Source: an uncultured Planctomycetota bacterium
GTDB taxonomy: Bacteria > Planctomycetota > Planctomycetia > Isosphaerales > Isosphaeraceae
Direction: 5' to 3'
Assembly: GCA_963823665.1 (NCBI GenBank)
Contig: CAWGMQ010000006.1
Coordinates: 640,001 to 704,000 of the forward strand
Length of the DNA stretch: 64,000 nucleotides
The notes under the pieces were generated by a model, which was not told the origin of the DNA, made no database searches, and saw only the letters and a list, made by a program, of their open reading frames with translations. Numbering within the stretch: position 1 is the stretch's first letter; the number at the start of each line of letters is the position of its first letter. This document shows, piece after piece, positions 13,200 to 44,665 of this stretch. The translations under genes were made by a program, and so were the position numbers.

Positions 13200-16100
13200 A
13201 TGAATCCGACCGTCTTAGCGATGAAACGCCCAATCACGACCCTCATGCTGGTCGTGGCGCTGATCAGTGGGGGCATCTATGCCGGGACGAGTATGCGGGT
13301 GGACATCTTCCCCTCGCTGAACGTTCCGAAGATCTACGTGTTCCTCGATTATATCGGGATGAGCCCGGACCAGATGGAGGGGTTCATCGTCAACGAGCTG
13401 GAACTGTATTTCCAGTACGTGGATGGCATCAAGGATATCAATACCCGGAACATTCAGCAGGTGGCCTTGTGCGAGCTTTCGTTCTTCAACGGTACCGACA
13501 TGGGCCAGGCGATGGCCCAGGTGGTAGCGATGTCGGACCGGGCGATGTCGTGGATGCCCAAGGGAACCTTGCCGCCGATGATCATGCGCATGGACGCAGG
13601 CAGCGTCCCCGTCGGCTACCTTGTGTTCGAGAGCACGGAAACCTCGCTGGGGGCGATGGGCGACCTGGCGCAAAACATCATCCGGCCGCTGGTGCAGCAG
13701 AACGTTCCCGGCACCGTCGCGATCTCGCCGTTCGGCCCGAACATGCGGTCGATCGTCGTGAATGTCGATCCCAACAAGCTTCTCGACTACAACCTGACCC
13801 CACAGCAGGTCATCGCAGCCTTGGCCAAGGGGAATACGGTCATTCCGGCGGGCAACATCTACATCAAGGACTCGATGCCGGTCGTCGCCAACAATGCCAC
13901 CGTTGTCGACATCCAGAAACTGGGGAGCATTCCGCTCAAGCTGGAGAGGAACGTCTACCTCCGCGACGTGGCGACCATCCAGGACTACGTGGATATCACG
14001 TATGGATACGCGCTGGTCAACGGCAAGAACTCGGTCTATTTGCCGATCATCAAGAAGGACACCGGATCGACCCTGACCGTCGTGGCCGACATCCACAAGA
14101 ACATGAAGACGTTCCGCGAAGCCGTGCCCGAGGACGTCACGATCAATTTCGAGTTCGATGAGTCGCCCACGGTCGTGGCGGCGGTCAAGAGCGTCGCCAC
14201 CGAGGGGCTGATCGGCGCAGGCTTGACCGGACTGATGATCCTGCTCTTCCTGCGCGACCCGCGCAGCGTGATCGTGGTGGTGTCCAATATTCCGCTGGCG
14301 CTACTGGGGTCGCTCCTTGGGCTCTACATGACGGGCAACACGATCAACATCATGTCGCTGGGCGGGATGGCGCTGGCAATCGGCATCTTGGTCGACGAGG
14401 CGACGGTGACGATCGAGAACGTGCACGTCCAGATGGAGCACACGTCACACATCGCCACCGCGGTGCTGCACGCGAGCAACGCCACGGCGGTTCCCAGGTT
14501 GCTGGCGCTGCTTTGCATCCTGTCGGTATTCATTCCGGCGTTCATCATGGAAGACCCATTGCGGTCGCTCTTCATGCCGCTGACCCTGGGTGTCGGATTT
14601 GCCATGATCTCGTCGTACATTCTCTCGAGCACGTTTGTGCCAATCCTGTGCGTGAGGCTGCTCAAGCACCACGGAGGCCATGGCGAAAAGAAGCAGGGGC
14701 TGTTCGACCGGTTTCTCAAGCTTTACGGCACGGCGGTAAGCTGGTTCGTGCGGCTGCGGTGGCTGACCGTGTCAATCTATCTGATAGCAAGTGCCCTGAT
14801 CCTGGGGGGACTGGGAATCCAGGTCGGCCGGGAGCTGTTCCCTCAGATCGATTCCGGGGAGTTCGTGCTGCGGTTCCGGCCTCCGCCTGGCTCGAACTTC
14901 GAGCTGACGCGGCAGATGGCACTCAAGTGCCTCGAGGAGATCGAGCGCGAGGCAAAGCCGGAAAACATCGAGATCACGATGGGCTACGTCGGGCAGGTTG
15001 CCCCGAACTTCGGCATCGACAACATGGTGCTGTTCATGCGCGGGCCGGACGACGGCCAGTTGCGGGTGGCACTCTCCGAGGCGAGCGGAATCAAGCTCGA
15101 CCGATTCCGCGAGCGCCTGCGCGAAGTGCTGCCCAAGAATGTGATTCCCTGGATGGCGAAGCGGCTCGAGCAGGGCGGTTTGTCCCCTGCGGACGCGCAG
15201 CGACAGGCGAAGTTGTCGACCTTCGGCTTCGAGCCCGGAGACATCGTGACCACCGTCATGAGCTTCGGCTCCTCGACGCCCATCGCCGTGCGAATCGTCG
15301 GCACCGACCTGAAGCTGGTGCGGCAGCACGCGGAGAAGATTGCCGCCAACATGCGGCGCATCCCGTTCCTCAAAGATGTGGGATTTGTCCAGCAGCTTGA
15401 CTACCCCACGGTGGAGCTGGACATCGATCGCGAAAAGGCCGGGCTCTCCGGCGCCCAGGTCGAGGACGTGGGCCACGCGGTTGTCATGGCAACGTCGTCA
15501 ACGCGCTTCGCCTCGCTCAACTACTGGATCGACGTGAAGACCGGCTTCGACTACCTCGTTCAGATCCAGGTACCGCCGCTCAGGATCGAGAAGCCGGAAG
15601 ACGTCGAAACGTTGCCGGTGGAATCGGTCAACCCACTGGTCAATCTGATGATTCGCGACGTGGCGTCGGTTAAGAAGGGTGTGCGGCCCGGCGAGATCGA
15701 CCGTGACATGTCGCAGCGCTATGTGACGCTCACGGCCAATGTCGAGGGCGAGGACATGGGCCGCGCGGCAGACCAGGTCGCCCGTGCGCTCTCCGCCGCC
15801 GGCGATCCGCCCCGCGGAGTGCGCGTACAGACGATGGGCCAGCTTCCCCCGATGCTCGAGATGTTCCAGTCGCTGGGAATCGGGCTTGGCGTCGCCGTGT
15901 TCGTGATCTTCGTGCTCTTGACCGCATATTTTCAGTCGCCGCGGCTCGCGCTGATCTCAATCGGCGCGGTGCCGGGCGTTCTCGCGGGCATCGCGACCAT
16001 TCTCTACTTCACGAACACGTCGCTGAACATCGAATCATTCATGGGTTCGATCATGTGCCTGGGCGTCTCGGTATCGAATTCGGTGATGCTCGTGACCTTC

Positions 16101-16571
16101 ATCGACGAGCACTGGAAGGCCGGCGCCTCTTCGACCGAGGCGGCCATAAAGGGCGCGAGCGAGCGGCTGCGGCCCATTCTGATGACAGCGTGCGCGATGA
16201 CCGTCGGCATGGTGCCGATGGCGCTGGCGCTGGAACGTGGGAGCCAGATGCAGGCGCCGTTGGGCCGGGCGGTCATCGGCGGGCTCGTGATGTCAACGTT
16301 CGCCACATTGCTCATTGTGCCGTCGATCTTCGCAGTTGTGATCGGCAAGAAGGAGGCCCGCTCGGCGTCGATTTACCCGGACGACAAGGAGAGCTCGCAC
16401 TACGACCCGGACGCGTATGCCCACGAAGGCCAGGAAGGCGGCGAGGCCGGCTCGCCGGGATCGCACGCTTCGGCGGCGGGCTCGTCCCAGAAACACGAAG
16501 TGAATGACGACCTGAACCACGGCGACGACGATGCCGGCCATGCGACGGGAGGCGCAACTGATGGACGTTGA
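13200..16571 (+). CDS. RND efflux permease subunit (RND1)
   Basis: AcrB/CzcA-family architecture: TINIMSLGG..LAIGILVDEATV, ERLRPILMT, PLGRAVIGGL. Confidence 0.96.
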   Translation: MNPTVLAMKRPITTLMLVVALISGGIYAGTSMRVDIFPSLNVPKIYVFLDYIGMSPDQMEGFIVNELELYFQYVDGIKDINTRNIQQVALCELSFFNGTDMGQAMAQVVAMSDRAMSWMPKGTLPPMIMRMDAGSVPVGYLVFESTETSLGAMGDLAQNIIRPLVQQNVPGTVAISPFGPNMRSIVVNVDPNKLLDYNLTPQQVIAALAKGNTVIPAGNIYIKDSMPVVANNATVVDIQKLGSIPLKLERNVYLRDVATIQDYVDITYGYALVNGKNSVYLPIIKKDTGSTLTVVADIHKNMKTFREAVPEDVTINFEFDESPTVVAAVKSVATEGLIGAGLTGLMILLFLRDPRSVIVVVSNIPLALLGSLLGLYMTGNTINIMSLGGMALAIGILVDEATVTIENVHVQMEHTSHIATAVLHASNATAVPRLLALLCILSVFIPAFIMEDPLRSLFMPLTLGVGFAMISSYILSSTFVPILCVRLLKHHGGHGEKKQGLFDRFLKLYGTAVSWFVRLRWLTVSIYLIASALILGGLGIQVGRELFPQIDSGEFVLRFRPPPGSNFELTRQMALKCLEEIEREAKPENIEITMGYVGQVAPNFGIDNMVLFMRGPDDGQLRVALSEASGIKLDRFRERLREVLPKNVIPWMAKRLEQGGLSPADAQRQAKLSTFGFEPGDIVTTVMSFGSSTPIAVRIVGTDLKLVRQHAEKIAANMRRIPFLKDVGFVQQLDYPTVELDIDREKAGLSGAQVEDVGHAVVMATSSTRFASLNYWIDVKTGFDYLVQIQVPPLRIEKPEDVETLPVESVNPLVNLMIRDVASVKKGVRPGEIDRDMSQRYVTLTANVEGEDMGRAADQVARALSAAGDPPRGVRVQTMGQLPPMLEMFQSLGIGLGVAVFVIFVLLTAYFQSPRLALISIGAVPGVLAGIATILYFTNTSLNIESFMGSIMCLGVSVSNSVMLVTFIDEHWKAGASSTEAAIKGASERLRPILMTACAMTVGMVPMALALERGSQMQAPLGRAVIGGLVMSTFATLLIVPSIFAVVIGKKEARSASIYPDDKESSHYDPDAYAHEGQEGGEAGSPGSHASAAGSSQKHEVNDDLNHGDDDAGHATGGATDGR

Positions 16572-18036
16572 TGGGATGACCGCGTGGTGGTTCTTGGGAC
16601 GATCCGTTGCTCGGAGTACTCTGATGCGGCAGGCGCGAGCGTGGCGCGTTTTCGGTCTCGTCGCTTTCGCGGCGACGGCCGGCTGCGGCCAGCAGGCGAA
16701 GATCGACTTCACCGATAACTCAAAACCCCCGCTCGTGCAGGTGATCAAGCCGCCGGTCCGCACCATTGTGCGCATCGTCGGGCAGCCCAGCTTCATCGAG
16801 AGCTTTGAGCGCACGTCGATCTTCAACAAGCCGACCGCTTATATCGATAAGTGGATCGTGGACATCGGCGACAAAGTGAAGAAGAACGACGTGCTGGCCA
16901 ACCTGTTCGCGCCCGAGCTGGTCGAAGAGCTGGCGTCGAAGACGGCGGCAGTCGTGCTCGACCGAGAACGGATCGCACTGGCCAAGGAAGAGGTGGAAGT
17001 GGCCAGGGCGGATGTCGCGGCGGCCGACGCCCGCGTGAAGGAAGCCGAGGAGATCTTGAAGCGGTATCAGGCCGAAGTCGACCGGTGGGATACCGAGGTC
17101 AAGCGGCTCGAGCGTCAAGTTGAGTCCGTCGTGATCGATCGCCGGGTCCTCTTCGAGTCAACCAATCAGCTCCATTCAAGCACCGCGGCGCGCGACAAGG
17201 CGATAGCGACCATCAAGCGGGCAAAGGCAGAGCTGGACTTTGCCCGAGCGACACTTGCCAAGAGCCAGGTGGATGTCAGGGTTACCGAGGCCGACTTGAA
17301 AGTGGCCCAGAGCGAGGAACGATATGCGAAAGCCTGGGTGGACTATCTCACGCTCCGCGCCCCGTTCGACGGCGTGATCACAGCCCGAAACGCAAATACT
17401 TTCGATTTCGTCATGCCCGCCACCGGCGACCCGACGGCGTTCTACCTCTCCCCGGATATCGCGCCCGGGGGTGCGGCGCCGATCTATGTGGTGGACCGGG
17501 TCGACGTCGTCCGGATCTTCGTGGATATCCCCGAGCAGGACGCCAACTTTGTGCACCCGGGGTCCAAAGCGACGGTGATTGCGAAGGCTTACCGCGATGA
17601 GCCGCTCGAAGGCACCGTCACACGCATCGCATGGGCCCTCAATCAGAAGAGCCGCACGCTTCGCGCCGAGATCGACCTCAAGAACCCCGGCAGTCAGCTC
17701 TTGCCGGGGGTATATGCGTACGTCAATTTGAGGATCGAGCGCCCGGGTGTGCGAGCGATGCCTGAGTCGGCGCTTTCGCACTCCGGCGACCAGGCGTATT
17801 ACTGGTCATACGAGAATGGGCGTGCGGTGAAGACGGAGGTACAAACAGGAGTCAGCGACGGCGAGTGGATTGAAGTCATCAATCGCCGAATTCCTTCTTC
17901 CGGCGAAATGGCTGAGGCTGAACCTCCGTGGCAACCGATTGACGGGACGGAGCAAGTAATCCTTGGCGACCTGGCGCTGCACGTCGACGGTGCACCGGTA
18001 GAAGTCGGACCGGCGACGGAGGGCGCAAAACCGTGA
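16561..18036 (+). CDS. RND periplasmic adaptor/membrane fusion protein (MFP1), lipoprotein
   Basis: Lipobox-like ATAGC; VDIGDKVKK lipoyl half; long coiled hairpin; APFDGVITARN; SRTLRAEIDL. Start codon uncertain. Confidence 0.93.
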   Translation: MDVDGMTAWWFLGRSVARSTLMRQARAWRVFGLVAFAATAGCGQQAKIDFTDNSKPPLVQVIKPPVRTIVRIVGQPSFIESFERTSIFNKPTAYIDKWIVDIGDKVKKNDVLANLFAPELVEELASKTAAVVLDRERIALAKEEVEVARADVAAADARVKEAEEILKRYQAEVDRWDTEVKRLERQVESVVIDRRVLFESTNQLHSSTAARDKAIATIKRAKAELDFARATLAKSQVDVRVTEADLKVAQSEERYAKAWVDYLTLRAPFDGVITARNANTFDFVMPATGDPTAFYLSPDIAPGGAAPIYVVDRVDVVRIFVDIPEQDANFVHPGSKATVIAKAYRDEPLEGTVTRIAWALNQKSRTLRAEIDLKNPGSQLLPGVYAYVNLRIERPGVRAMPESALSHSGDQAYYWSYENGRAVKTEVQTGVSDGEWIEVINRRIPSSGEMAEAEPPWQPIDGTEQVILGDLALHVDGAPVEVGPATEGAKP

Positions 18037-19592
18037 TGGGGCACTCCGTCGTCTCGGCAGCCAGACCAGATCGTCCGGCCGGATTCGGCTGGCGCGCGTG
18101 CATTCTCCTCGCGGGCTTCCTCGCAGTTCTGGTGGCGCCGGGATGCGAACAGAAGCCGAAGAATGACTACAAAAGCGTGGACGAGCCGCCGGCCGTGCGC
18201 CTGGTCAAGCCGCAAGTCCGGACTATCGTTCGCACAGTCGCGCAGCCCAGCTTCGTGCAGAGCTTTGAGCGGTCGTCCGTCTTTCCGAAAATGAATGCGT
18301 ATATCCTCAAGTGGAATGTCGACATCGGCGACAAGGTGAAGAAGGGCGATGTGCTCGCCAACCTGTTTGTGCCGGAGCTAATTGCCGACCACCAGACGAA
18401 GCAGGCGATGGTCGTGCTCGACCGGGAGCGCATCGCGCTGGCCAAGGAGGTGGTGGAGGTGGCCAAGGCCGACGTCGAAGCGGCCGTTGCGCGGCTCGAG
18501 GAGGCCCGGGCTGAGCTCGCTGGCTATAAGGCCGAGGCCGAGCGCTGGGACTCGGAGGTCAAGCGGCTCGAAGCCGAGCTCAAAAGGGGTGTCGTCAATC
18601 CGCAGGATGTTCTTCAGACCACGAACCGATGGAAGGCGACAGTCGCCGCGCGGGATTCTGCCGGTGCGACCGTTTTGAAGGCGGATGCCGAGCTGCTCTC
18701 GCGGCGGTCTGCGCTCGCGAAGGCCGGGATCGGCGTGGACGTGGCGGAAGCCGCGCTGAAAGTGGCCCAAAGCGAGGAAAAGCGGCTTCAGGCGTGGGTC
18801 GACTATCTCGTCTTGCCCGCGCCGTACGACGGCATTATCGTCGGCCGCAACGCCAACACGTTCGACCTCGTCCTCCCTGCCAAGGGCGACCCGTCCGCAT
18901 TTTCGCATTCTCCGTTCCTGTCGCCCTCGGGTGCTTCCGCGCCGATCTACGTCGTCGACCGCACCGACATCGTTCGCGTTTTCGTCGATATACCCGAGCG
19001 CGATGCCAACTATGTTCAACAGGGCTCCAAGGCATCGGTGTTGATCAAGGCATTCCGCGACCTGCCGATCTCGGGCACGGTCACGCGCACGTCCTGGGCG
19101 CTGAACATCAAGAGCCGCACGCTTCGCGCCGAGATCGACCTGCCCAACACCAACAGCCAGATCCTGCCGGGGATGTACGCGTATGCCAGCGTGAAAATCG
19201 AGCGACCGGGCGTGTGGACGCTGCCCTTGTCAGCCCTCATGCACCAGGGCGACCGAACCATCCTGCAAGTCGGCGAAAAGGTGTTCTGCTGGGTGTACAA
19301 GGATGGACACGCAAGCCGCATCGAGATGGAAACGGGTGTCATCGGTGACCTCGACCCGGAGAGCGGCGACCAGTGGATCGAGGTCACCAATCGACGCGCC
19401 GCGGGCGCATCGCCGGGGTCATCCGCCGGCGGGCGCTGGACGCCGATTGACGGATCGGAGGACGTCATCCTGGGCGATCTGTCGACTCTCGCCGAAGGCA
19501 ATGCCGTCAAGGTCGCTCCGCCAGCCAAGACAAAGAAGGCTGGAGGCGAACCGCCCGATCGTCGAGCCAGGAAGAGCCAGGCGAAGAAGTGA
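18033..19592 (+). CDS. RND periplasmic adaptor (MFP2), lipoprotein
   Basis: VAPGC lipobox; same MFP motifs; overlaps the MFP1 stop. Confidence 0.93.
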   Translation: MMGHSVVSAARPDRPAGFGWRACILLAGFLAVLVAPGCEQKPKNDYKSVDEPPAVRLVKPQVRTIVRTVAQPSFVQSFERSSVFPKMNAYILKWNVDIGDKVKKGDVLANLFVPELIADHQTKQAMVVLDRERIALAKEVVEVAKADVEAAVARLEEARAELAGYKAEAERWDSEVKRLEAELKRGVVNPQDVLQTTNRWKATVAARDSAGATVLKADAELLSRRSALAKAGIGVDVAEAALKVAQSEEKRLQAWVDYLVLPAPYDGIIVGRNANTFDLVLPAKGDPSAFSHSPFLSPSGASAPIYVVDRTDIVRVFVDIPERDANYVQQGSKASVLIKAFRDLPISGTVTRTSWALNIKSRTLRAEIDLPNTNSQILPGMYAYASVKIERPGVWTLPLSALMHQGDRTILQVGEKVFCWVYKDGHASRIEMETGVIGDLDPESGDQWIEVTNRRAAGASPGSSAGGRWTPIDGSEDVILGDLSTLAEGNAVKVAPPAKTKKAGGEPPDRRARKSQAKK

Positions 19593-19606: not shown

Positions 19607-21336
19607 TCAGCGGGTCGCCGGCGGTGGCCCGTTGCGAACCGCTGGCAGGTAAGACGGTCGCTCGGTATCCACGGGGTCGACGTTGCCCGGGGGCCGGAGA
19701 TAAGTGATCTCCTTGGCGGGGTAACCGAGCGCGTGGAACAGCTCGAACTGGGCACGGTTGTAGTCGGCCACGGTCGTGAAATACTCGTCGAACGCCAGTT
19801 TCAGCAGCCTGAGCGCGTAAACCACTTCCTGGGGACGATAGACCAGGACGAGCGTATCGCCGAAGCGGGTGGTCTGGCGCAGGCCCTCGACGTTTCCGTT
19901 GAAGGCGCTCAAGCCCGTGCGCAGCGAGCGATCGGCCTGGCCCACCCGGGCGGTCGCGGACTGGAGATTTGCATAGGCCTCGGTGACTTCCGCCGCCACC
20001 ATATCCTGGAGCTTGAAGAGCTCGACGATGGTGTGCGACTGGTCGCCGCGCTGCTGCTTGATCCGCGCCAGGTTGCCGATCCCGAAGGCGTCGAGTTGCC
20101 AACTGAGCTGAAGGCTCACGTCCAGGCGACCGGTCCACTGATTGAGGCTGGAGTTGGGTCCGAGGCCGAAGATCCCGGCCTGGGTCATCATGCCGCCGGG
20201 GTCCTGGAAGCCGCCGATGATGACGAGGGGAAGGAACGGGCGCATCTTCTCGCGGCGGATCCGCTCCTGTGCGGCCTGGACTAGGGCACGCTGGGAGGCG
20301 ACGTCGGGGCGGTTGGCGAGCGCGATGCGATGCAAGTCGGGCAGCGGCAGGGCAGGGTCGATCAGGGTGAGCTGAAGATGATCGTGCTCGAGCGGGACGA
20401 CGACGGCGAGGGGGTTGAGGCGGAGCACCCGGGTCAGATTGGCGCTCGAGACGCGCCAGGCTTGACGCGCGGAGGTGGCTTCCTGCTCCAGGTGGGCGAG
20501 CAGGTTCCGGGCCCGCTCGACTTCGACGATCGGGACCAGCTCCTTGCTCAAGCTGGCGATTTGATCGACGAGCTCGCGCCGCGCTCGACACAGTAGAGCG
20601 CTGCGGTATACATGCCGCGGTGCTGGTGGACGCGAAAGTACGCATTGGCGGTCAAGAGCAGAGCGTCGTTCTTGGCGACCTGGACATCCCATTCTCGCGA
20701 ATTAAGCACCTGGCGCGCGACCAGCGGCTCGAAGTAGGCGTCAGTCAGATTCACGAACTGGAAGATGCCGGAGTTAGTGACATCGAGGCCGCCTCCGGCG
20801 TAGAAATAGTTGACGCTCGGCGCGGTCATGACGCCCTTGTTGAAGTCGGGGCCGCCGCCGTCGTGGCGGATGTAATCAGCGGCAAACGTCATCGTCGGGA
20901 TCCAAATCACCTTGGCCCGAGTGAGCTGTGCTTCCGCGACCCAGACACTGGCCTGGGCGGCCGCCACGATCAGCGGGCGAGCGTCGGAAAGCCGCAAGGC
21001 GGTGGCGAGGTTGATCGGAAATCCAACGTCGCTTGGTTCAAGCCGCGCGGGTTTCATTCGCGCGCCTTGGAGGTCCAATGCAGTCCGAGGTTGATCGGCA
21101 GCCAGGCCCGATCGCGGCAGCGGCTGCGGCATGTCCTGGACGCCGGGCCTCCATGGCCGTGGCGGGGGAATCGCCGCTCTCGAAGAAGCCGCCGGCCGGG
21201 CCGGCGGCGGAGGCAGATCAGTCGTCGACCCGGACGACTGCAGAGGCGCTGCCGGCTGGGCGTGGCAGGCAGGCGACTCGAACCAAGGAAGCGTCACGGC
21301 CGCAAGGGTGACCGTGAATCTGACGATTCGATCCAT
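19607..21336 (-). CDS. TolC-family outer membrane factor (OMF1), frameshift near 20580
   Basis: GGAGGAG RBS + MDRIVRF signal peptide; FPINLATALRL...; continues in ORF 19607-20692 to NGPPPATR; one base missing at GGC[C]GC relative to paralogues. Confidence 0.85.
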
Positions 21337-21457
21337 CGGTCGCGGCTCCTCCCCCCGTCCCTCCTGCTCGGAACCTGCCGCGCAGCGACTCAGGCCTGAC
21401 AGGACGTCAGATGAATTATCGGCTCGTGCCGATCTGGATGTTGATAACGAATGCTCT

Positions 21458-22204
21458 TTAGAAATGTCCCGCGAAATCCCGGCGCTGGGTCCGCGCATCG
21501 ACGATCTCATTGATCGAAGTATTAGGCAGACCAAGTTGCGCGCCCTTGCCCGTTTCATTGCCCTGACCAAACGCCACGATCCAGTTGAGAGTGCGGGCGA
21601 ACGTAGAAGGATTGTACTTGAGCCGGAGGAAGATGCCCGATGGTCCGGGTACGGCTGTGGATGACCTGCCGCCCAGGTTGAACTGGAATCCGCCCGCGAC
21701 GAAGGAGACGGCGTAATATTTTTTTGTAAGGACGTAGAAGGCGAGAATTTGCCCCGGCTTCCACTGCTGATCGCCTGCCAGAATGGGAAAGCCCGCGAAG
21801 GATCGGGGTTGGTTCGTCATTCGGACGGTGAAACCGTCGCTGGCAGTGAAGGTCTGTGCCGTGCCGTTCTTGACGGTGACAAAGGTGACGTTGTAAACCT
21901 GGCCGGGCACCGGTTTTTTGCCCTGGACAAGGACTTGCTGGAACGGAGGAACGAGCTTGTAGGGTGTCTGCCAGGGCGTGTTGGTGACGCGAAACGCGAG
22001 GTAGCCAAAGGCACCGGGCGTGTGCGGTTGACGATGGCGGCCCGCAAGCGCCGACACCGCCTGGCTCCCGGCGATGTCGGAGGCGAGCGAGTGAACATTT
22101 GACGGTTTCGCAGTACGTGGGGTGACTGCGCCGGCACTGAGCAGTTGTTTTGCTTCAAATCGTTCGAGCGCGGGACGGAACGTCGTGATTGAGCGGCGGC
22201 GCAC
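21458..22204 (-). CDS. Unknown putative exported protein X1 with planctomycete LEPR-XLL-like leader
   Basis: FRPALERFEAKQLLS leader; ~170-aa domain shared with X2 and X3. Confidence 0.85.
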   Translation of the reverse strand: MRRRSITTFRPALERFEAKQLLSAGAVTPRTAKPSNVHSLASDIAGSQAVSALAGRHRQPHTPGAFGYLAFRVTNTPWQTPYKLVPPFQQVLVQGKKPVPGQVYNVTFVTVKNGTAQTFTASDGFTVRMTNQPRSFAGFPILAGDQQWKPGQILAFYVLTKKYYAVSFVAGGFQFNLGGRSSTAVPGPSGIFLRLKYNPSTFARTLNWIVAFGQGNETGKGAQLGLPNTSINEIVDARTQRRDFAGHF

Positions 22205-24275: not shown

Positions 24276-24398
24276 CAGACTCACCTCTTCCCTCTTGGAC
24301 AGCGCGGTGCTTCGATCAGCCGCGCCGAGCTGGCCGGATATTCCTGATTGATCGGCTAATCGGGGTAGGGAGGATGATCCGAAACATGGTTCACTCCG

Positions 24399-24521: not shown

Positions 24522-24665
24522 AATGGGCACAAATGATCAGTATCGTCACATTTCGGGTAATCCCGTACACCGCGAAATGCCGATGAATCGATAAATCCGG
24601 CTCATGCGGAGCGGTCGCTACCACCGTCACTGCGTTCGATTGCCTGTTCATGGAGAGGGGTGTGC

Positions 24666-34983: not shown

Positions 34984-36444
34984 TTAGTTAGCTTGGGGCT
35001 GTGAGCCGGTTTCCGCCCGGGGAGCCGCTGGCTGAGGACTGCCCCCCTGAGGACTCTCCGGCGGATGACTCTCCGGCTGCGCCTCGTCCCGAACTTTGGC
35101 GGCATTCTTCTCGGCGTCCGACGCGGACAGCACCTCGACGGGGCCGCCGTCGGCGAGGACCGACAAGTTGCCCAGGATCACCTCTTCCGCGCCGCTTACC
35201 GGTGTCCACGAATCGCCGCCCTCCAGTGAAGGCCTCTGGAGCCTGGTGATCTCGATGTACTTACCGTCGCTCACGCCCGTTCGAACTTCAGTTCTCTTGG
35301 CCTTGCCGTTCTCATGTTGCCAGCAGTAGGTCTTCTTTCCGCGGTAGGAGAGGGCCTCCAGCGGCAGCGCGCGCACGTTGGGTCGCTCGATGATCACCTT
35401 GGCGTAGACGTACATGCCTGGCAGGAGCTGGCTCTTGGGGTTGGCGAGGTCGATCTCGGCACGGAGCGTGCGGTTCTTGATGTTCAAGGTCCGCGACGTA
35501 TGGGCGACTTTGCCCACAATCGGCTCTTCGCTGTACGCCTCGGGAACGACGGTCGCCTTGGTGCCGGCTTGCACGTAGCTGGCATCCTGCTCGGGGATAT
35601 CGACGGAGATCCGGACGGTGTCGAGGCGGCCGATCACGCAGATCGGCGCGGCCGTTGTCCGATGGGAGACGTGGGGCGAATGCTCCATCGCGGTCGGGTC
35701 ACCGGTTGCGGGCCGGACGAAATCGAACGTGTTGGCGTTGCGGGCCACGACCACGCCGTCGACGGGGGCGCGGAGCTTCAGGCAGCCGACCCAGGCCTCG
35801 GTCCGCTTGGCAACGCTCACGGCGACGGAGAGATCGACTTCGTCGATCTCGACTTCGGGCTTATCTTTCTCCAGGGAAGACTCTCTCCAGAGCGCGACCG
35901 TCGTTGCCCTGGAGACCGTCGCGGCCGCGGCAGCTCGCGCGGCAACGCTCGCCTTCAACTGATTGGTCAACTCGAGCAGGATCTGCGGGTCGACGATGCC
36001 CCGCTCGAGTTCATGCTCGAGCCGTTTGACTTCGGAGTCCCAGCGCTCGACCTCGGCCTCGTACTTGTCGAGGATCGCCCTGGTTTCCTTGACCATTTCG
36101 GGCACATAAAGGATGGCGAGCGTGTCTCCCTTATCCACTCGGTCCCCGATGTCGACGTTCCAATTTTCGATGTAGGCCGCCACCTCGAGAAACACCGATG
36201 ATTGCTCGCGGGTTTCGATAATGCTGGGCTGGCCGACGATCCGCACAATCTTGCGCAGCTCGGGCCTGATGATATGAACCACCGGCGGCTCGGTGACCGT
36301 GTTGTCGATCCCTTTCTCGGCGCGAGCGCAGCCCGGTGCCGCCCCGAAGGCGAGCAGCGCGCAGATCAGCAGTCCCCTGGCGGGCAAACGACTGAAAATC
36401 GCAGACCAGAGGCGCGCCACACATCTGTGATCTCCAATCGCCAT
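34984..36444 (-). CDS. RND periplasmic adaptor (MFP3) with a 38-aa in-frame hairpin deletion; possibly degenerate
   Basis: Paralogue of MFP4/MFP5; AAPGC lipobox; PEMV joined directly to KETRAIL. Start uncertain: the ATG homologous to the paralogue starts (36424) is out of frame. Confidence 0.8.
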   Translation of the reverse strand: MAIGDHRCVARLWSAIFSRLPARGLLICALLAFGAAPGCARAEKGIDNTVTEPPVVHIIRPELRKIVRIVGQPSIIETREQSSVFLEVAAYIENWNVDIGDRVDKGDTLAILYVPEMVKETRAILDKYEAEVERWDSEVKRLEHELERGIVDPQILLELTNQLKASVAARAAAAATVSRATTVALWRESSLEKDKPEVEIDEVDLSVAVSVAKRTEAWVGCLKLRAPVDGVVVARNANTFDFVRPATGDPTAMEHSPHVSHRTTAAPICVIGRLDTVRISVDIPEQDASYVQAGTKATVVPEAYSEEPIVGKVAHTSRTLNIKNRTLRAEIDLANPKSQLLPGMYVYAKVIIERPNVRALPLEALSYRGKKTYCWQHENGKAKRTEVRTGVSDGKYIEITRLQRPSLEGGDSWTPVSGAEEVILGNLSVLADGGPVEVLSASDAEKNAAKVRDEAQPESHPPESPQGGSPQPAAPRAETGSQPQAN

Positions 36445-36448
36445 CTAA

Positions 36449-38071
36449 CTAACGAATCCCCTCGGCGGGCCCTGCGGAAGCTGGGCTAACCGTGACGACG
36501 TTGGCTGGGGCTTGGGGCGCTGAGCCGGTTTCCGCACGGGAAGGCACCGGCTGGGGACTTCCGGGCTGAGGATTGACCGGCTGAGGAGTTCCCGCCTCGG
36601 GACTATCTGGCTGAGCCGCATCCGGAACTTCCTCGGCGACTCGCTCGGCGTCCGATCCCGGCAGCACCTCGACAGGGTCGCCCTCAGCCAGGAGCGATAG
36701 GTCGCCCAGGATCACCAGCTCCGAACCGCTTACCGGTTCCCAGGAATCGGCGCCCTCCGGTGCCGTGCGTGGCTTGAGGCCCGTGATCTCGATGAACCGC
36801 CCGTCGCTGGCGCCGGTCTCGACCTCGGTTCTGACGGCCTTGCCATTCTCAAGTTGCCAGCAGTAGGCCAACTCACCGCTGTACGAGAGCGCGGCCAGCG
36901 GTAGCGTGCGCATGCTGGGGCGCTCGATGATCACCTTGGCGTAGGCGTACATGCCTGGCAGGAGCTGGCTCTTGGGGTTGGGGAGGTCGATCTCGGCACG
37001 GAGCGTCCGGCTCTTGATGTTCAAGGCCCACGACGTCCGCGTGACGCTCCCCGGGATCGGCTGATCGCCGAACGCCTTGGCAACGATGGTCGCCTTGGTG
37101 CCGACATGAACGTAGTTGGCATCCTGCTCGGGAATATCGACGAAGATTCGCACGATGTCGACGCGTTCGACCACGTAGATCGGCGCGGCGCTTTTCCCGG
37201 GAGAAAGGTGGGGCGAGCGCTCCATCGAGGTCGGGTCGCCCGATGTGGGCAGGACGAAGTCGAATGTGTTGGCGTTGCGGGCCACGATCACGCCGTCGAA
37301 GGGTGCGGGGAGCTTTAAGTAGCTGACGAGCGCGTCGAGCCGCTTGGCTTCGCTCACTGCCACGGAGAGGTCGGCCCGGGCGACCTCGACTTCAACCTTA
37401 TTCTTTTCGAGGGACGACTCTCTGGAGAGCAAGTCTGCCTCAGCCCTGGCGATCGTCGCCGACGCAGCCGACCGCGCAGCGACGCTGGCCTTCCACTGAT
37501 CCGTCGACTCGAAAAGGATCTGCGGGTCGACGATGCCCTTGTCGACTTCATTCTTGAGCCGCTTGACTTCCGCGTCCCAGCGCTCGACCTCGGCTTCGTA
37601 CTTGTTGTAGATCTCCTTGGCTTCCTTGAGGCTGGCTTGAGCGGCTCGCACGTCGGCTCCTGCGACCTTGACGATCTTGATGGTGCGCTCGACTCGCTGC
37701 TCATCCAGCTTGACAGTTGCCTTCTTGGTTTCGAGATCCTCGACCATTTCGGGCGCGAAGAGAGTTGCCAGGATTTGACCCTTCTTCACGCGGTCGCCGA
37801 TATCGACGTTCCATTCTTCGATGTAGCCCGTTACCTTGGGAAACACCGATGATCGCTCGTAGCTTTCGATAAAGCTGGGCTGACCGACAATCCGTACGAT
37901 CTTGCGCAGCTCGGGCCTGATGATGTGAACCGCCGGCGATTCGGCGACCGTGTTGTCGATCTCCTCCTCGTCGTGGCCGCAGCCTGAAGCGGCCACGAAA
38001 AGCACAGCGCAGATCACCATACCCGAGTTGGGGAAACGATTCGAAATCACAGACCAGAGCGCGCGAGTCAT
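36449..38071 (-). CDS. RND periplasmic adaptor (MFP4), lipoprotein
   Basis: GGAG RBS; AASGC lipobox; MFP motifs; C-terminal PQP repeats. Confidence 0.93.
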   Translation of the reverse strand: MTRALWSVISNRFPNSGMVICAVLFVAASGCGHDEEEIDNTVAESPAVHIIRPELRKIVRIVGQPSFIESYERSSVFPKVTGYIEEWNVDIGDRVKKGQILATLFAPEMVEDLETKKATVKLDEQRVERTIKIVKVAGADVRAAQASLKEAKEIYNKYEAEVERWDAEVKRLKNEVDKGIVDPQILFESTDQWKASVAARSAASATIARAEADLLSRESSLEKNKVEVEVARADLSVAVSEAKRLDALVSYLKLPAPFDGVIVARNANTFDFVLPTSGDPTSMERSPHLSPGKSAAPIYVVERVDIVRIFVDIPEQDANYVHVGTKATIVAKAFGDQPIPGSVTRTSWALNIKSRTLRAEIDLPNPKSQLLPGMYAYAKVIIERPSMRTLPLAALSYSGELAYCWQLENGKAVRTEVETGASDGRFIEITGLKPRTAPEGADSWEPVSGSELVILGDLSLLAEGDPVEVLPGSDAERVAEEVPDAAQPDSPEAGTPQPVNPQPGSPQPVPSRAETGSAPQAPANVVTVSPASAGPAEGIR

Positions 38072-38092: not shown

Positions 38093-39688
38093 TTAGCGAA
38101 CCGCCTTGGCAAGCCCGACAGAAGCCGGGCGACTCGTGGCGACGGTAGTCGGGGTTTCAGACAATGAACCGGAGTGAGCTCGGCGAGCGACCGGCTGGGG
38201 GCTGACCGGCTGAGGACTCTTCGGCAGCGTCTTATCGGGGGCCTCGGTCGCGATTTTCTCGGCGCCCGATGTCGGCAGCACCTCGACGGGGCCGCCGTCG
38301 GCGAGGACCGAGAGGTCGCCCAGGATCACCTCTTCCGAGCCGTTGGCAGGTCCCCAGGGGTCGGTGCCCTCCGGCGCGGGCGCTTGCTGGAGCCCCGTGA
38401 TCTCGATGTACTTGTCGTTGCTCACGCCCGTTTGAACTTCAGTTCTGACGGCCTTGCCGTTCTCATGTTGCCAGCAGTAGGTCTTCTCACCGCTGTAGGA
38501 GAGGGCCGCCAGCGGCAGCGTGCGCACGTTGGGACGCTCGATGATCACCTTGGCGTAGGCGTACATGCCTGGCAGGAGCTGGCTTTTGGGGTTGGTCAGG
38601 TCGATCTCGGCACGGAGCGTCCGGCTCTTGGTGTTCAGGGCCCACGACGTACGGGTGACTTTGCCCGCAATCGGCTGGTCGCGATACGCCTTGGCGACGA
38701 CGGTCGCCTTGGTGCCGACTTGCACGTAGTTGGCATCCTGCTCCGGGATATCGACAAAGATCCGTACGATGTCGAGGCGGTCGACCACGTAGATCGGCGC
38801 GGCGGTTCCGCCGGGAGAGAGGTGGGGCGAGCTCTCCATCGCGGTCGGGTCACCGGATGAGGGTAGGACGAAATCGAACGTGTTGGCGTTGCGGCCGACG
38901 ATCACGCCGTCGAACGGCGCGGGGAGCTTCAGGTAGCCGACCCACGCCTCGAGCCGCTTGGCCTCGCTCACGGCCACGGAGAGGTCGGCCCGGGCGACCT
39001 CGACTTCGACCGTATCTTTCTCGAGGGTGGACTGTTTGGAGAGCAGGTCTGCTTCGGCCTTGGCGATGCTGGCGGACGCGGCCGAGCGGGCCGCGGTGCT
39101 GGCCTTCAACTGGTTAGTCGACTCGAGCAGGATCTGCGGATCGACGATGCCCCGCTCGACTTCATGCTTGAGCCGTTTGACTTCGGAGTCCCAGCGCTCG
39201 ACCTCGGCCTCGAACTTGTCGTAGATCGCTTTGGCTTCCTTGAGGCTGGCCTCGGCGGCGCGCACGTCGGCCTCGGCAACCTTGACGACCTTGATGGCCC
39301 GCTCGACCCGCTGTTCATCCAGCTTGACGGTCGCCCTCTTCGTCCCGAAGTCCTCGACCAGCTCGGGCACGTACAACGTTGCCAGAGTGTCTCCCTTCTT
39401 CACGCGGTCGCCGATGTCGACGTTCCATTTCTCGATGTAGCCCGTCATCTTGGGAAACACCGATGATCGCTCGTAGCTTTCGATAAAGCTGGGCTGGCCG
39501 ACGATGCGCACGATCGTTCGCAGCTCTGGCTTGACCACGTGAACCGCAGGGGGTTTGGTGACAGTGTTGACCGTGCCCTTTTCCTCGTGGCCACAGCCGG
39601 CAGCGGCTCCGGCCGCAAACAGAGCGGTGATCATCAGCACCGAGGCGGGAAGCCGATCGGAAGTCGCAGACCAGAGCGTGCCAGGCAT
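38093..39688 (-). CDS. RND periplasmic adaptor (MFP5), lipoprotein
   Basis: Start MPGTLWS chosen by homology to MFP4 and a GGAG RBS; AAAGC lipobox. Confidence 0.92.
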   Translation of the reverse strand: MPGTLWSATSDRLPASVLMITALFAAGAAAGCGHEEKGTVNTVTKPPAVHVVKPELRTIVRIVGQPSFIESYERSSVFPKMTGYIEKWNVDIGDRVKKGDTLATLYVPELVEDFGTKRATVKLDEQRVERAIKVVKVAEADVRAAEASLKEAKAIYDKFEAEVERWDSEVKRLKHEVERGIVDPQILLESTNQLKASTAARSAASASIAKAEADLLSKQSTLEKDTVEVEVARADLSVAVSEAKRLEAWVGYLKLPAPFDGVIVGRNANTFDFVLPSSGDPTAMESSPHLSPGGTAAPIYVVDRLDIVRIFVDIPEQDANYVQVGTKATVVAKAYRDQPIAGKVTRTSWALNTKSRTLRAEIDLTNPKSQLLPGMYAYAKVIIERPNVRTLPLAALSYSGEKTYCWQHENGKAVRTEVQTGVSNDKYIEITGLQQAPAPEGTDPWGPANGSEEVILGDLSVLADGGPVEVLPTSGAEKIATEAPDKTLPKSPQPVSPQPVARRAHSGSLSETPTTVATSRPASVGLAKAVR

Positions 39689-39789
39689 CAGTGATCTCCA
39701 GGATATGGGGCGGCGTGCCAAAGCGGCCGCCCCTTGGGTTTTTCCGAGTTCAACGTGCATCAATGCTCTCCAAGTAAGAAGGTAGTGAC

Positions 39790-42700
39790 TCATTCAGATT
39801 CTCCGGAGGATTGGAGCTCCTCCTCGATCGCGTCGGCAGACGACGCCGGAAGTTCGCTCTCATCGGGGGCATGGCTCTGCGCGGCTGCTGGGGTCGCGAA
39901 GACCAGCGGGTCGTAGAGGCGGCTCTCGGGGTCGTCGGGGTAGATCGACGGCGAGTGTGCGACTTTCGACCCGACGATGACGGCGAAAATCGAGGGGACG
40001 ACCAGCAAGGTGGCGAATGTCGACATCACCAGGCCGCCGATGACCGCCAGGCCCAGCGGGGCCTGCATCTGGCTTCCTTTCTCGAGTGCCAGCGCCATGG
40101 GCACCATGCCTACTGTCATGGCGCAGGCCGTCATCAAGATGGGTCGCAGCCGCTCGCTTGCACCGAGGATCGCCGCCTGTATCGAGGTGGCTCCCCGTTT
40201 CCAGTGCTCGTCGATGAACGTCACGAGCATGACCGAGTTCGACACCGAGACGCCCAGGCACATGATCGAGCCCATGAACGACTCGATGTTGAGCGATGTG
40301 TTGCTGAAGTAGAGAATCACCGCGATGCCGGCGAGCACTCCCGGCACGGCGCCGACGGAAATCAGGGCCAGCCGCGGCGATTGGAAATAGGCGGTGAGTA
40401 GCACGAAGATCACGAACACGGCGACCGCCAGTCCGATCGAGAGCGCTTTGAACATCTCGATCATGGGGGGAAGCTGACCCATCTTCTCGACGCGTACGCC
40501 GCGCGGCGGCTCGCCGGCGGCATCGATGGCCTTCGCCACTTGATTCGAGGCCCGGCCCATGTCCTCCCCCTCGACATTGGCCGTGAGCGTCAAGTAGCGC
40601 TGCGACATATCGCGATCCAGCTCGCCGGGTCGCACTCCCGTTCGCACGGTTGCCACGTCGCGGAGCATCAGGTTGACCTCGGGGTTGACCGACTGGAGCG
40701 GGAGGGTTTCGAGGTCTTCAGGCTTTTCCATGCGCAGGGGGGGAACCTGAAGCTGCACCAGGTAGTCGAACCCCGTCTTGACGTCGACCCAGTAATTCAG
40801 CGAATGGAACCGGGTTGACGCCGTGGACAGCACGAGTGCGTGGGCCACGTCTTCGACCCGCGCCCGGAGAGGCCCGCTTTCTCGCGGTCGATATCGATCT
40901 CCACGCTGGGATAGTCGAGCATCTGTTCGAATCCCACGTCCCGCAGCGAGGGAATCCGCTTCATCTCGGCCCGGATTTTCTCGGCATGCTGGCGCACCAG
41001 CTTGAGATCGGTGCCGACCACGCGCACGGCGATCGGGGTCATCGAGCCGAAGCTCATCACCGCCGAGACGATGTCGCCGGGCTCGAATCCGAAGGTGGCC
41101 TGCTGTGCTTGCTGCAAAGCCACTTCGCGGGACAAGCCTCCTTGTTCAATCCGGTCTGCCAGCCAGGGGATCACGCGTTTCGGAAGGACCTCTCGCAGCG
41201 TTTCGCGAAAACCCGCGAGTTTGATCTTGGCATCTTCGGTGAAGGCCACGCGAAGCTGGCCGTCGTCGGGCCCGCGCATGAAGAGCACCATGTTGTCAAT
41301 GCCGAAGTTGGGGGCAACCTGCCCCACGAAGCCCATGGTGATATCGATGTTCTCGGCCTTTGCCTCAGTCTCGATCACTTCGAGGCACTTCACCGCCATC
41401 TGGCGGGTCAACTCGAAATTCGAGCCCGGCGGCGGCCGGAACCGCAGCACGAACTGGCCCGAATCGATCTGCGGGAACAATTCCCTGCCGACTTGCATCC
41501 CGAGCAGGCCCAGGAGTAGCCCGCAACCGACTATGTAGCCCGGCACCACCACCCAGCGCAAGTGCACGAACCAGTGCACCACGCCGCCGTAAACCTTGAG
41601 CATCCGGTCGAAGAGCCCCTGCTTCTGCTGACCTTCCGCACCATGGCCGCCGTGCCCATGCCCACTATGCTTGAGCAGACTCACGCAGAGGACCGGCACG
41701 AACGTACTCGACAGCAGATAGGAAGAGATCATGGCAAAGCCCACCCCCAGGGTCAGCGGCATGAACAGCGAACGCAAAGGGTCGGCCATGATGAACGCGG
41801 GGATGAACACCGAGAGAATACAGAGCAACGCGAGCAACCGAGGCACCGCCGTCGCATTGCTCGCGTGCAGCACGGCGGAAGCGATGTTATTGGTGCGGCC
41901 CATCTGAACGTGCACGTTCTCGATGGTAACCGTCGCCTCGTCGACCAGAATGCCGATTGCCAGGGCCATGCCGCCTAAGGACATGATGTTGATCGTGTTG
42001 CCGGTCACCCACAGCCCGAACAGTGATCCGAGAAGGGCAAGCGGAATGTTGGAAACAACCACGATCACGCTGCGCACGTCACCCAGGAACAAAAGAATCA
42101 TGAGCCCCGTCAGTGCGGCGCCGATCAAGCCTTCCGTGGCCACGCTCTCGACCGCCGCCCTCACCGTGGGCGACTCGTCGAACTCGAAGTTGACCTTCAC
42201 ATCCTTGGGAACGGCTTCCCGGAATTCCTTCATGTGCTTGTGCACGTCATCCACGACCGTCAGTGTCGAGCCGGTGTCCTTCTTGATGATGGGCAGATAG
42301 ACCGATTTCTTGCCGTTGACCAGCGCATATCCGTAGGTGATATCGGTATCGTCCGAAATGGTGGCCACGTCTCGCAGATAGACGTTTTTTCCCAGCTTGA
42401 GTGGTATGTTGCCCAGTAGCTGAGGGTCCACCACGGTCGCATTGTTGGCGACGAGCGGCATCGAGTCCTTGACGTAGATGTTTCCGGCCGGAATGATCGT
42501 GTTTCCTGTCGCCACCGCTTCGATCACCTGCTGCGGCGTGATGTTGTAGTCGAGCAGCTTCTGGGGGTTGACATTGATGACGATCGACCGCATGTTCGGG
42601 CCGAACGGCGAGATGGCCACCGTCCCGGGCACGTACTTCTGGACCAGCGGCCGGATCACGTTCTGCGCATAGTCGCCCATCTGACCCAGCGATGTCTCGT

Positions 42701-43136
42701 CGCTCTCGAAGACGAGGTAGCCGACGGGAACGCTTCCCGAATCCATGCGCATGATCATGGGGGGCAATGTCCCCTTGGGCATCCACGACATGGCCCGGTC
42801 CGACATCGCAACGACCTGGGCCATCGCCTGTCCCATGTCGGTGCCCGGGAAGAACGACAGCCGGCACAAGGCGACCTGCTGGATGTTGCGCGTGTCGATA
42901 TCCTGAATGCCGTCAACGTACTGAAAGTACAGCTCGAGCTGGTTCACGATGAACCCCTCGACCTGATCGGGGCTCATGCCGATGTAGTCGAGGAATACAT
43001 AGATCTTGGGGGTGTTGAGCGATGGAAAAATATCGACGCGCATCCGGGTGTAAGCCAGCGCGCCGCCGCTAATGAGGGCGACGACGAGCATGAGCGTGGT
43101 GATCGGCCGCCGCATCGCGAAGACGGTCGGATTCAT
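39790..43136 (-). CDS. RND efflux permease subunit (RND3), frameshift near 40863
   Basis: ORFs 40797-43136 and 39790-40848 tile one RND; one base missing at REKAGLSG/ARVEDVAHA. Confidence 0.9.
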
Positions 43137-43420: not shown

Positions 43421-43780
43421 TCAACATCGCAACGGATGCACGGTCGCCGCGAGGCCGACCGAGATGAGGTTTTGGCCGAATTTGGAGAGGGGAGTAGAGG
43501 CGGGGTCGACCAAGAATCCAGCCAGATGACCGGCCTCGGCCAGTTTCTCTTCGTCCGATTCCGATGCAATAGCTTTGACTTGAACCAAACGCGACGGCAC
43601 CTGATTCACGGAGGTTGGAGCGGAAAGCTTGCCAAAGGCGAAGGTGCGGCCAGCGGTGTCGTTGCCGGCAAGCGCGCCGAGCATCTTCGATGGCCGTACC
43701 GGCGACGTGAGCACCGTCGCAAGCAGGGCCAGCGCCGAGAGCAGCCGAACTCCGTTGCCTTGAACGCTGAGTGTAAACAT
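43421..43780 (-). CDS. Small hypothetical protein with N-terminal hydrophobic segment and C-terminal PLRC (candidate leader ORF of the RND3 operon)
   Basis: 119 aa; LLSALALLATVL; ends TVHPLRC; co-oriented and 284 bp upstream of RND3. Confidence 0.55.
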   Translation of the reverse strand: MFTLSVQGNGVRLLSALALLATVLTSPVRPSKMLGALAGNDTAGRTFAFGKLSAPTSVNQVPSRLVQVKAIASESDEEKLAEAGHLAGFLVDPASTPLSKFGQNLISVGLAATVHPLRC

Positions 43781-44060: not shown

Positions 44061-44084
44061 CCAAGCTGAGCCGTCTTCGTCAGT

Positions 44085-44665
44085 GTGTTTCAGGCGGGGA
44101 TCTTTGGCCTGGGACCCAATAGCAGCCTCAACCAGTGGGCCGGTCGCGTCGACGTCAGCCTTCAGGCAATCTGGCAGCTCGACGGTTTCGGTTTTGGAAA
44201 CCTGGCGCGGATCAAGCAGCAGCGAGGCGAGCAGTCCGCGGCGATCGTCGAGCTATTCCACGCTCAGGACCGCGTCTCGGCTGAAGTGACCGAAGCTCAG
44301 GCACACCTGCAATCGGCCGCGGCGCGGGTCGGCCAGGCCCACCGGCGCTGCGGACGGCGATCATTACCCTTAATGGAAACTATGAAGGCCTGCGCCAGAC
44401 CACCCGTCTAGGCGACGTGCTGGTGCTGGTGTACCGTCCGCAGGAGGCGGTCTACGCACTCGAGCTGCTCATGTTCGCCTACAACGAGTACTTCACCACG
44501 GTCGCCGAATATAATCGCGCGCAATTCCATTTGTACCTCGCGCTTGGCTACCCGGCCCGAGAGCTCGCGCACGTCCGGCCCCCCGGTCCCGTCGAGCCCG
44601 TCGACACGGAGCGGCCAGACTATTTGCCGCGGGTGGGCAATGGTCCGCCGCCGGCGACCCGGTGA
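44085..44665 (+). pseudogene. C-terminal third of a fifth TolC-like OMF (OMF5), 5'-deleted, frameshift near 44345
   Basis: FQAGIFGLGPNSSLNQW...GNLARIKQQRG... and ...YNRAQF...NGPPPATR; no signal peptide or N-terminal half upstream. Confidence 0.88.

Follow-up and report, generated by a model that had tools for sequence, protein, structure and literature searches.

In tripartite efflux systems such as AcrAB-TolC and MexAB-OprM, a resistance-nodulation-division (RND) permease of the ACR_tran family is joined by a HlyD-type adaptor, or membrane fusion protein (MFP), to an outer membrane factor (OMF) with the TolC fold. Here we analyse a 31-kb cluster of such genes within a 64,000-nucleotide stretch of DNA from an uncultured bacterium of the Isosphaeraceae (Planctomycetota), which we call the window (G000:C6:640001-704000; host genome G000, 16.46 Mb in 12 contigs, 92% complete). 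The cluster holds three RND, five MFP and five OMF genes (one OMF being a 3' remnant), three genes of a family that we term X, and one gene for a protein with a PDZ domain. It derives by duplication and rearrangement from an Isosphaeraceae cassette with the order leader-RND-MFP-OMF-X-OMF-PDZ.

The core of this machine is of a known kind, and the system variant is new in the make-up of its cassette. As in AcrAB-TolC and MexAB-OprM, the three classical parts are encoded and the permeases keep D407, N941, R971 and T978 (AcrB numbering). However, the cluster RNDs are about 21% identical to AcrB, have Ser in place of K940, and combine Glu (DE subtype) or Met (DM subtype) in place of D408 with a new Arg or Ile in transmembrane helix 5 (TM5). 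The adaptors have a 151-residue spacer (81 residues in MdtA, 58 in CusB), and the cassette adds two OMFs, X and PDZ. Tandem RND paralogues unequal at the proton site and tandem MFPs recall MdtABC/MuxABC and TriABC, and the DE/DM pair recalls MdtB2C, as these are described in the accessible text of PMC4338810. MdtB and MdtC, in contrast, are 50% identical and both keep the two aspartates and the lysine, whereas the DE/DM pair is largely homogenised outside TM4-6, its DM member is optional (18/121 genomes) and the OMF is duplicated too. Plasmid-borne RNDs of Phyllobacterium, Methylocystis and Hymenobacter share 42-46% identity, the GILVDE motif, a TM5 Arg or Lys, the loss of K940 and the RND-before-MFP order, but their regions have one OMF or none and hairpins of 82-110 residues where measured; X, PDZ and the DM subtype were not seen in the three regions read.

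The smaller genes have looser parallels. TolC, according to the available part of PMC13082787, is likewise an OMF without a lipid anchor that has a dedicated partner gene, ybjP; YbjP is a periplasmic lipoprotein, whereas X has neither lipobox nor Sec signal and is a partner only putatively. The N terminus of X, a basic patch followed by L-E-x-L-E-x-K/R-x-L-L, resembles that of PF07595 (Planc_extracel) proteins, from which X differs in its small size (about 250 residues), in scoring below the Pfam model and in a core without family or close fold. The leader open reading frame (ORF) is short, ends in a conserved C-terminal motif and heads a transport operon, as do the CruR/DUF2946 upstream ORFs (uORFs) of PMC9426467, whose text was available in part; it has PLRC rather than RAPP and no CXXC, the likeness being one of design only and a regulatory role putative. 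No ATP-binding cassette (ABC) gene of the type I secretion kind was found in the cluster or among the recurrent neighbours inspected. In the main texts of the literature we found no description of the cassette, the X family, the DE/DM relay pair or the sequence element that precedes the OMF genes.

X marks a recurring cassette of the Isosphaeraceae

An alignment of 83 X sequences located 68 X loci, several per genome and some overlapping or cut by contig ends. A close OMF lies within 3 kb in 58 of them, and 51 have two or more OMFs; an MFP is present in 50 and a close RND in 47 (within 10 kb), and PDZ lies within 5 kb in 40. The simplest order, that of the cassette given above, recurs for example at L099, L108, L110, L123, L126 and L128 and in genome G108, while in a second recurring order OMF-PDZ-X-OMF faces MFP-MFP-RND (L062, L065 and L076). 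In the window, two facing cassettes stand back to back with further tandem copies. A typical carrier has a single gene each for RND, X and PDZ, with one or two MFPs and two OMFs, and the 3:5:5 multiplicity that a first-pass annotation of this DNA highlighted is not the defining unit: most carriers hold the small cassette, and copy number tracks genome size (Spearman 0.68 for OMF and 0.54 for X over 41 genomes, among which kin are not independent).

Among 121 genomes of the family, X was found in 68, a close OMF in 70 and a close RND in 66 (best E < 1e-85; relaxing the cut to 1e-62 gives 90 genomes and includes a clade of about 50% identity). X and OMF occur together in 67 genomes, all three in 61 and none in 48. 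Thus X and the OMF clade are jointly present in 67 of the 71 genomes having either and concordant in 117 of 121, the four mismatched genomes being 70-81% complete. PDZ was found in 56 of the 121 genomes, 55 of them OMF-positive. Two or more OMFs are present in every one of the 41 carriers with a completeness of 85% or higher, and the 21 of these with genomes below 9 Mb have exactly two OMF matches each. X, PDZ, OMF and RND genes are under purifying selection, with ratios of nonsynonymous to synonymous substitution rates (dN/dS) of 0.07-0.26.

Beyond the family, none of 189 other Planctomycetia yielded X, and a close OMF turned up in one of 300 genomes of the phylum (G411); named homologues come from Isosphaeraceae or other planctomycete bins. 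The system, first proposed as a planctomycete one, is indeed lineage-specific, but as an Isosphaeraceae trait and not across the phylum. Linkage and co-occurrence (58/68 X loci near an OMF; X and OMF together in 67/121 genomes) bear out X and PDZ as dedicated companions of the RND/OMF clade.

Two further genes stand in or beside the cassettes of relatives and at G000 C10, and not in the window: one for a YflT stress protein (13 stretches) and one for a single-TM protein, coiled-coil by eye (19 stretches). At C10 (L014, G000:C10:307000-318000) a DE-DM RND tandem with two MFPs, the YflT gene and the single-TM gene upstream has no OMF or X; a lone DM RND with an MFP elsewhere (L016, G000:C4:1382000-1387000) has neither as well.

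Two proton-site variants of one RND permease

The RNDs match ACR_tran at 552 bits against a cut-off of 28 and fall below every curated subfamily cut-off (TIGR00915, 284 against 940; NF033617, 448 against 1250; TIGR00914, 353 against 701), with 20-23% identity to AcrB, CusA, MdtB and MdtC. These scores, together with residue checks, place them outside the named drug- and metal-pump subfamilies, in keeping with the first-pass view that this is not a drug pump.

We read the relay residues from 39 full-length RND sequences aligned to AcrB. D407 is kept in 38, and N941, R971 and T978 in 39 each. K940, regarded as the central lysine in AcrB, is kept in none (Ser in 38, Ala in one), and position 408 is Glu in 32 and Met in seven, in full co-variation with Arg (32) or Ile (seven) in TM5 at AcrB 441/442, where two alignments differ by one column. 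The position of S481 is Ala in 7/7 DM and Ser in 30/30 close DE sequences. The HAE-1 relay D407-D408-K940-R971-T978 is therefore not retained, with K940 in 0/39 and D408 replaced by Glu or Met. Because D408 of AcrB contacts S481 and the L442 backbone (PMC4359379, accessible part), the changes at 408, TM5 and S481 cluster at one site. An E408-Arg(TM5) ion pair likely stands in for the D408-K940 pair, with Met/Ile as a hydrophobic variant.

The DM form accounts for 28 copies in 18 of the 121 genomes, all of at least 8.5 Mb; 16 of the 18 have a non-DM copy as well (counted by eye), and the two exceptions are 60% and 72% complete. RND3 (DE) and RND2 (DM) place unequal proton sites in one operon, an arrangement also present at G000 C10 and in genomes G001 and G053. 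A quick tree of full-length RNDs needs five changes for six labelled DM rows; a tree of TM2-6 unites all seven DM rows with support 0.97. Four tandem DE/DM pairs are 92-99% identical in DNA over the first 600 nt and 73-78% identical over nt 1201-1500 (TM4-6); the pair is apparently kept alike by gene conversion, except in the TM4-6 patch, which remains distinct. One DM-type RND (L062 16898-20239) has Asn at D407 and neither TM4 relay acid left, possibly through a sequencing error.

Long adaptors and paired TolC-type channels

The MFPs match HlyD_D23 (65-87 bits against 30), and the two scanned against TIGR01730 reach 116 and 133 against 95. The 151-residue spacer separates the lipoyl halves in 35 of the 37 measurable MFPs (of 56 in all). 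MFP3 alone has a spacer of 113 residues, and it is under relaxed selection (dN/dS 0.47-0.50); it is probably decaying.

The OMFs match the OEP family above its cut-off. By sequence no OMF relative was found in the PDB, and placement came by fold search only: the predicted model, with a predicted local distance difference test (pLDDT) score of 81, matches TolC with a Foldseek E of 2e-15, Z of 27.7 and a root mean square deviation of 3.3 over 401 residues, and has the TolC fold. The OMFs carry a Sec signal, with a lipobox in 0/81 and C-x-A/G-Q in 42/81, and the C-terminal tail NGPPPATR is present in 44/85, with close variants in most others. Conservation reaches at least 90% across 60 OMFs in the loop joining strands 61-71 and 88-98 and in parts of loop 282-312, which by TolC topology would be extracellular. 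An extra beta-hairpin at residues 394-403 of the model can be read as lying near the periplasmic tip. In the OMF tree, paralogues sort partially by position (before or after X) and partly as within-genome sisters.

A promoter-like element, RTMAWC-N16-RCCGATNAW, derived from four sites in the window, precedes each of the four full-length window OMFs. It stands upstream of 39 of 135 OMF genes, in 30 of them 70-81 nt from the start, and before 0 of 274 other cassette genes, for which the upstream stretches scanned were shorter; G000 has five occurrences, four of them in the window. A scan of 12600-32000 for sigma-70 promoters and terminators gave no excess over shuffles. It is probable that every OMF is transcribed from a promoter of its own; in three of the four units X and PDZ follow downstream. 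A 49-bp stretch near 13015-13063 (+), upstream of RND1, has a CCGAT element and matches two places near an RND start in G001.

X, PDZ and leader proteins

X has 489 homologues. X1-X3 gave no Pfam match at E 0.01, none of 83 members scored above a Pfam cut-off and the best NCBIfam match had E 0.37; the Atlas gave no usable match, and Foldseek searches of the PDB and viral libraries none at E 0.001. The predicted model has a confident core at about residues 70-255 with generic beta-sandwich matches only (best Z 4.3 in a wide search), weak profile matches to repeats of two large proteins cover 50-90 residues, and no X was found in viral contigs. A distant, shorter subfamily (P0190, P0198, P0200, P0253, P0265, P0266 and P0268) has the same N-terminal motif without the C-terminal helices and tail; a metagenome scan for it gave two marginal matches.

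The motif E-x-L/F-E-x-K/R-x-L lies within the first 45 residues in 102 of 120 X homologues, against 0.2% of shuffles, and later in one. The median homologue has no hydrophobic signal stretch, and no lipobox was found. At the other end, 115 of 120 finish in F/Y-G/A-G-H/R/Y-F, a tail absent from X3. The N-terminal motif resembles RRLxxExLExRxLLA, which PMC8567305 describes as a putative signal for the export of surface proteins in planctomycetes; the accessible portion of the SecA_DEAD paper PMC4452313 makes no mention of it. The PF07595 model matched 0 of 83 X members, and X is absent among its 48 matches in the genome (150 of 512 candidates scored), whereas a profile of the X N terminus matches 41 other places in G000, five of them common to the PF07595 matches (150 candidates scored for each). 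By eye, the sites matched include what we take to be protease-like and repeat proteins. Because the motif is common to about 40 unlinked sites in the genome, the signal points to a general export route and not to this pump. By these features X is likely surface-located and more likely an accessory than cargo. Of the first-pass proposal that X and PDZ are cargo or accessory parts, the cargo half is weakened for X, which also lies far from the pump in several genomes. Another gene with a planctomycete N-terminal motif, at 50657-51730 (+) of the window, is split by frameshifts and has a matching reading frame in G001.

The PDZ protein is mostly single-copy in carriers, most homologues have no lipobox, and family scans found no protease domain beside its one PDZ domain. 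An apparent PDZ-X fusion, P0271, was rejected as frameshift read-through. At L061 7828-8925, L079 4035-5072 and L078 near 5111, a copy of the OMF C-terminal tail is joined to the PDZ gene or comes after it, probably as the scar of a rearrangement that placed PDZ ahead of X.

PLRC is present in each of the 15 homologues of the leader ORF and forms the very end of 14, and none has RAPP or CXXC; the leader has a dN/dS of 0.42 and no Pfam match. A PLRC-ending homologue, L190 (G000:C10:2048306-2048632), heads an unrelated MFP-RND operon, which suggests that PLRC leaders are a general class for RND operons in Isosphaeraceae. The first-pass annotation had seen no local regulator, a statement now qualified by two candidate means of control, the conserved leader and the OMF-specific element.

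Gene order and integrity of the cluster

ORF and family scans of the window recovered the gene set, order and strands as first annotated (Table 1). The description of every class as close paralogues fits the RNDs (79-85% identity) and the OMFs (about 58-77% by piece) and is generous for the MFPs (47-73%) and X (45-50%).

Table 1 Features of the export gene cluster in the window
Feature	Position	Strand	Remarks
RND1	13200..16571	+	ACR_tran permease, DE subtype (TM4 GILVDE, TM5 Arg)
MFP1	16531..18036	+	Long-hairpin adaptor; lipobox-like N terminus; true start probably further in
MFP2	18033..19592	+	
OMF1	19607..21336	-	Of the kind that lies downstream of X; frameshift of 1 base near 20580, outside the read-checked stretch
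Promoter-like element before OMF1	21415..21445	-	RTMAWC-N16-RCCGATNAW
X1	21458..22204	-	N-terminal RPxLExLExKxLLS motif, beta-sandwich core; no family match
OMF2	22365..24275	-	Intact; predicted TolC fold; Sec signal peptide, Pro-rich linker
Promoter-like element before OMF2	24348..24378	-	
Promoter-like element before OMF3	24557..24587	+	Divergent from OMF2
OMF3	24666..26393	+	Two frameshifts (near 25535 and 26075), each repaired in short-read contigs
PDZ	26628..27524	+	Signal peptide, conserved Gly/Tyr/Pro-rich region, C-terminal PDZ domain
X2	27643..28428	+	
Promoter-like element before OMF4	28560..28590	+	
OMF4	28666..30497	+	Signal peptide and core in different frames; shift within linker, no short-read contig row there
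X3	30697..31377	+	Without conserved C-terminal F/Y-G/A-G-H/R-F tail; gap-free across one short-read contig
RND2	31391..34747	-	DM subtype (TM4 GILVDM, TM5 Ile, TM6 Ala)
MFP3	34984..36444	-	One-sided 38-aa hairpin deletion, probably decaying
MFP4	36449..38071	-	
MFP5	38093..39793	-	
RND3	39790..43136	-	DE subtype; 1-base frameshift near 40862, restored in short-read contig
Leader ORF	43421..43780	-	119 aa; hydrophobic N terminus, conserved C-terminal PLRC; candidate regulatory uORF
OMF5 remnant	44086..44665	+	3' part of OMF; counterpart full-length in congener G001

Among the OMFs only OMF2 reads through, and deletions of one or two bases occur in OMF1, OMF3 (two sites), OMF5 and RND3. Frames were checked over 25000-44900 with short-read contigs of a close strain from two of four soil runs (run labels X1 and X4). 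These restore two bases at 25535 (runs X1 and X4), one at 26075 (run X1) and one at 40862 (run X1), and hold no informative row for the OMF4 and OMF5 breaks. Because the bases are restored there, the breaks at 25535, 26075 and 40862 are probably sequencing errors; a programmed frameshift or pseudogene for OMF3 and RND3 is disfavoured on the same ground and because similar breaks are common across the G000 assembly. The frameshifts of the window sit in GC-rich CGCG/CCGG-like contexts. An Eco57I-type restriction-modification methylase is encoded at 6656-8323 (-).

The congener G001 is collinear with the cluster at 76-85% nucleotide identity and holds three RND, four MFP, five OMF and three X genes together with PDZ and the leader. 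Synonymous divergence between the paralogues compared is 0.39-1.9, and these two observations rule out an assembly duplication as the cause of the multiplicity. The multiplicity is real and, since G001 is collinear with the same gene classes, predates the split of the two species.

An 80-bp imperfect direct repeat (43951-44071 and 50260-50339) flanks the OMF5 remnant and a DUF1501/PSD1/pRiA4b block (44696-50200) that is missing from the corresponding place in G001. The idea that OMF5 arrived together with this block was dropped after the G001 comparison, where the OMF is full-length and the block missing. Next to RND1, a DUF4145-nSTAND1-FGE-sulfatase protein is encoded at 8709-12698 (+), with related genes near the cassette in G008 and at G000 C4.

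A working model and its rivals

We tentatively favour a putative exporter of small molecules, driven by protons, in which the adaptor is long, the channel is made of two paralogues, mixed RNDs are optional, X is a partner at the outer face and PDZ a periplasmic helper. The RND would take substrate from the periplasm or outer leaflet, driven by protons via D407, R971, T978 and N941, with a fixed E408-Arg(TM5) ion pair replacing the lost K940 in DE permeases and the DM subtype acting either as the other protomer or as a pump with different coupling. MFPs with their long hairpins could span a wide periplasm, and the two OMF paralogues, never fewer in well-assembled carriers, would make the exit duct, possibly as a heterotrimer. 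X may be exported by a general pathway that recognises the planctomycete N-terminal motif and then bind conserved loops at the outer side of the OMF; the PDZ protein, exported by Sec, would work in the periplasm. The leader ORF and the element before each OMF may control expression, and the extra copies in this large genome may add dose and variants, some of them decaying (MFP3, OMF5 and perhaps X3). The word combinatorial, used in the first-pass annotation, has only indirect support, from the two RND subtypes and at least two OMFs.

Several observations weigh against this model. Most carriers have the DE subtype only, so a heteromer is not required, and this majority argues against an obligatory MdtBC-type heteromer; the DM grouping in the TM2-6 tree is lost once three diagnostic columns are removed, and the Met/Ile swap could be a neutral, compensated change. 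The DE/Arg/K940-loss signature is common to the plasmid RNDs of Phyllobacterium, Methylocystis and Hymenobacter (with Lys there), whose operons are plain ones of two or three genes. The OMFs of a pair are frequently sisters within one genome, a pattern as compatible with dose as with division of labour. X falls short of the PF07595 model and has no OMF near it in 9 of 68 loci, among them cultured strains: Aquisphaera insulae JC669 has X with PDZ only (L101), and Singulisphaera sp. PoT has X alone (L115). Conversely, G411 has the OMF pair and pump, with X not found in the 40 kb read, and G000 itself has three further close RNDs with MFPs and without OMF or X. Because kin genomes are not independent, the co-occurrence may rest on few events.

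Some of these points suit an ordinary homotrimeric efflux pump belonging to a not yet named RND subfamily, in which X and PDZ are co-regulated passengers without a physical link and the copies reflect dose or drift. Such a pump, which we consider unlikely though a serious contender, would accord with relatives of the same TM signature in plain operons of other phyla, with the correlation between copy number and genome size, with decaying copies and unlinked X, and with the general-stress gene YflT in or beside the cassette in 13 stretches, as in a co-regulated stress block. It sits poorly with X and OMF clade being concordant even where unlinked, with the invariable pair of OMFs in well-assembled carriers and with a DM patch that resists homogenisation.

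Improbable, in our judgement, is a role for X and PDZ as assembly or quality-control factors of the non-lipidated OMFs, comparable to that of YbjP for TolC. OMFs with a Sec signal, no lipobox and a conserved C-terminal tail would suit such factors, and a lipoprotein partner of lipid-less TolC is known (PMC13082787, part of text available); X and most PDZ homologues, however, lack a lipobox, the X motif points to the surface and not the periplasm, and PDZ stays single-copy while OMFs multiply.

Slightly less probable still is X as the cargo of a proton-driven RND-MFP-OMF secretion or assembly machine, with PDZ as a periplasmic chaperone reading the C-terminal Phe of X. Some 40 unlinked sites, a number of them in large proteins, share the motif on which export would depend; the motif is also present in lineages of planctomycetes in which searches did not find this OMF clade (PMC8567305), and the sole PDZ-X fusion was an artefact. 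X does lack a Sec-type hydrophobic stretch, carries an export-type motif and a conserved tail, is placed between two OMFs and multiplies with them, and has a fold that is loosely Ig/adhesin-like; the extra OMF hairpin near the periplasmic tip fits as well. To our knowledge, no RND exports a folded protein, which counts against this reading. We are equally doubtful of the wider version, in which an RND whose proton relay is rewired, an adaptor of double length and a TolC channel of two paralogues would together export X or assemble a surface structure capped by X. Heavy-metal efflux of the HME type is very improbable: the best solved relative by sequence is ZneA (E 2e-67), many periplasmic Met residues are conserved and one distant relative adjoins chromate-resistance genes, but CusA M573/M623/M672, the charged relay, E939 and K984 are not kept in any of 37 close sequences (periplasmic positions in that alignment being uncertain because identity is only about 22%), TIGR00914 scores fall short and no metal-resistance genes were seen among the recurrent neighbours inspected.

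Significance

More than half of the Isosphaeraceae genomes examined (67/121 with both X and the OMF clade), cultured strains included, carry the cassette, which brings with it a family of 489 X homologues without a Pfam, NCBIfam or close fold match. A K940-less permease family with two co-varying solutions at the D408 site, both in one operon, is a natural test of RND energy coupling, and the OMF pair is a candidate heterotrimeric TolC-type channel. X is a putative small, single-domain substrate for the long-proposed planctomycete export signal. Should the X-exporting reading prove true, an RND would take the place of the ABC transporter in a secretion system otherwise resembling type I.

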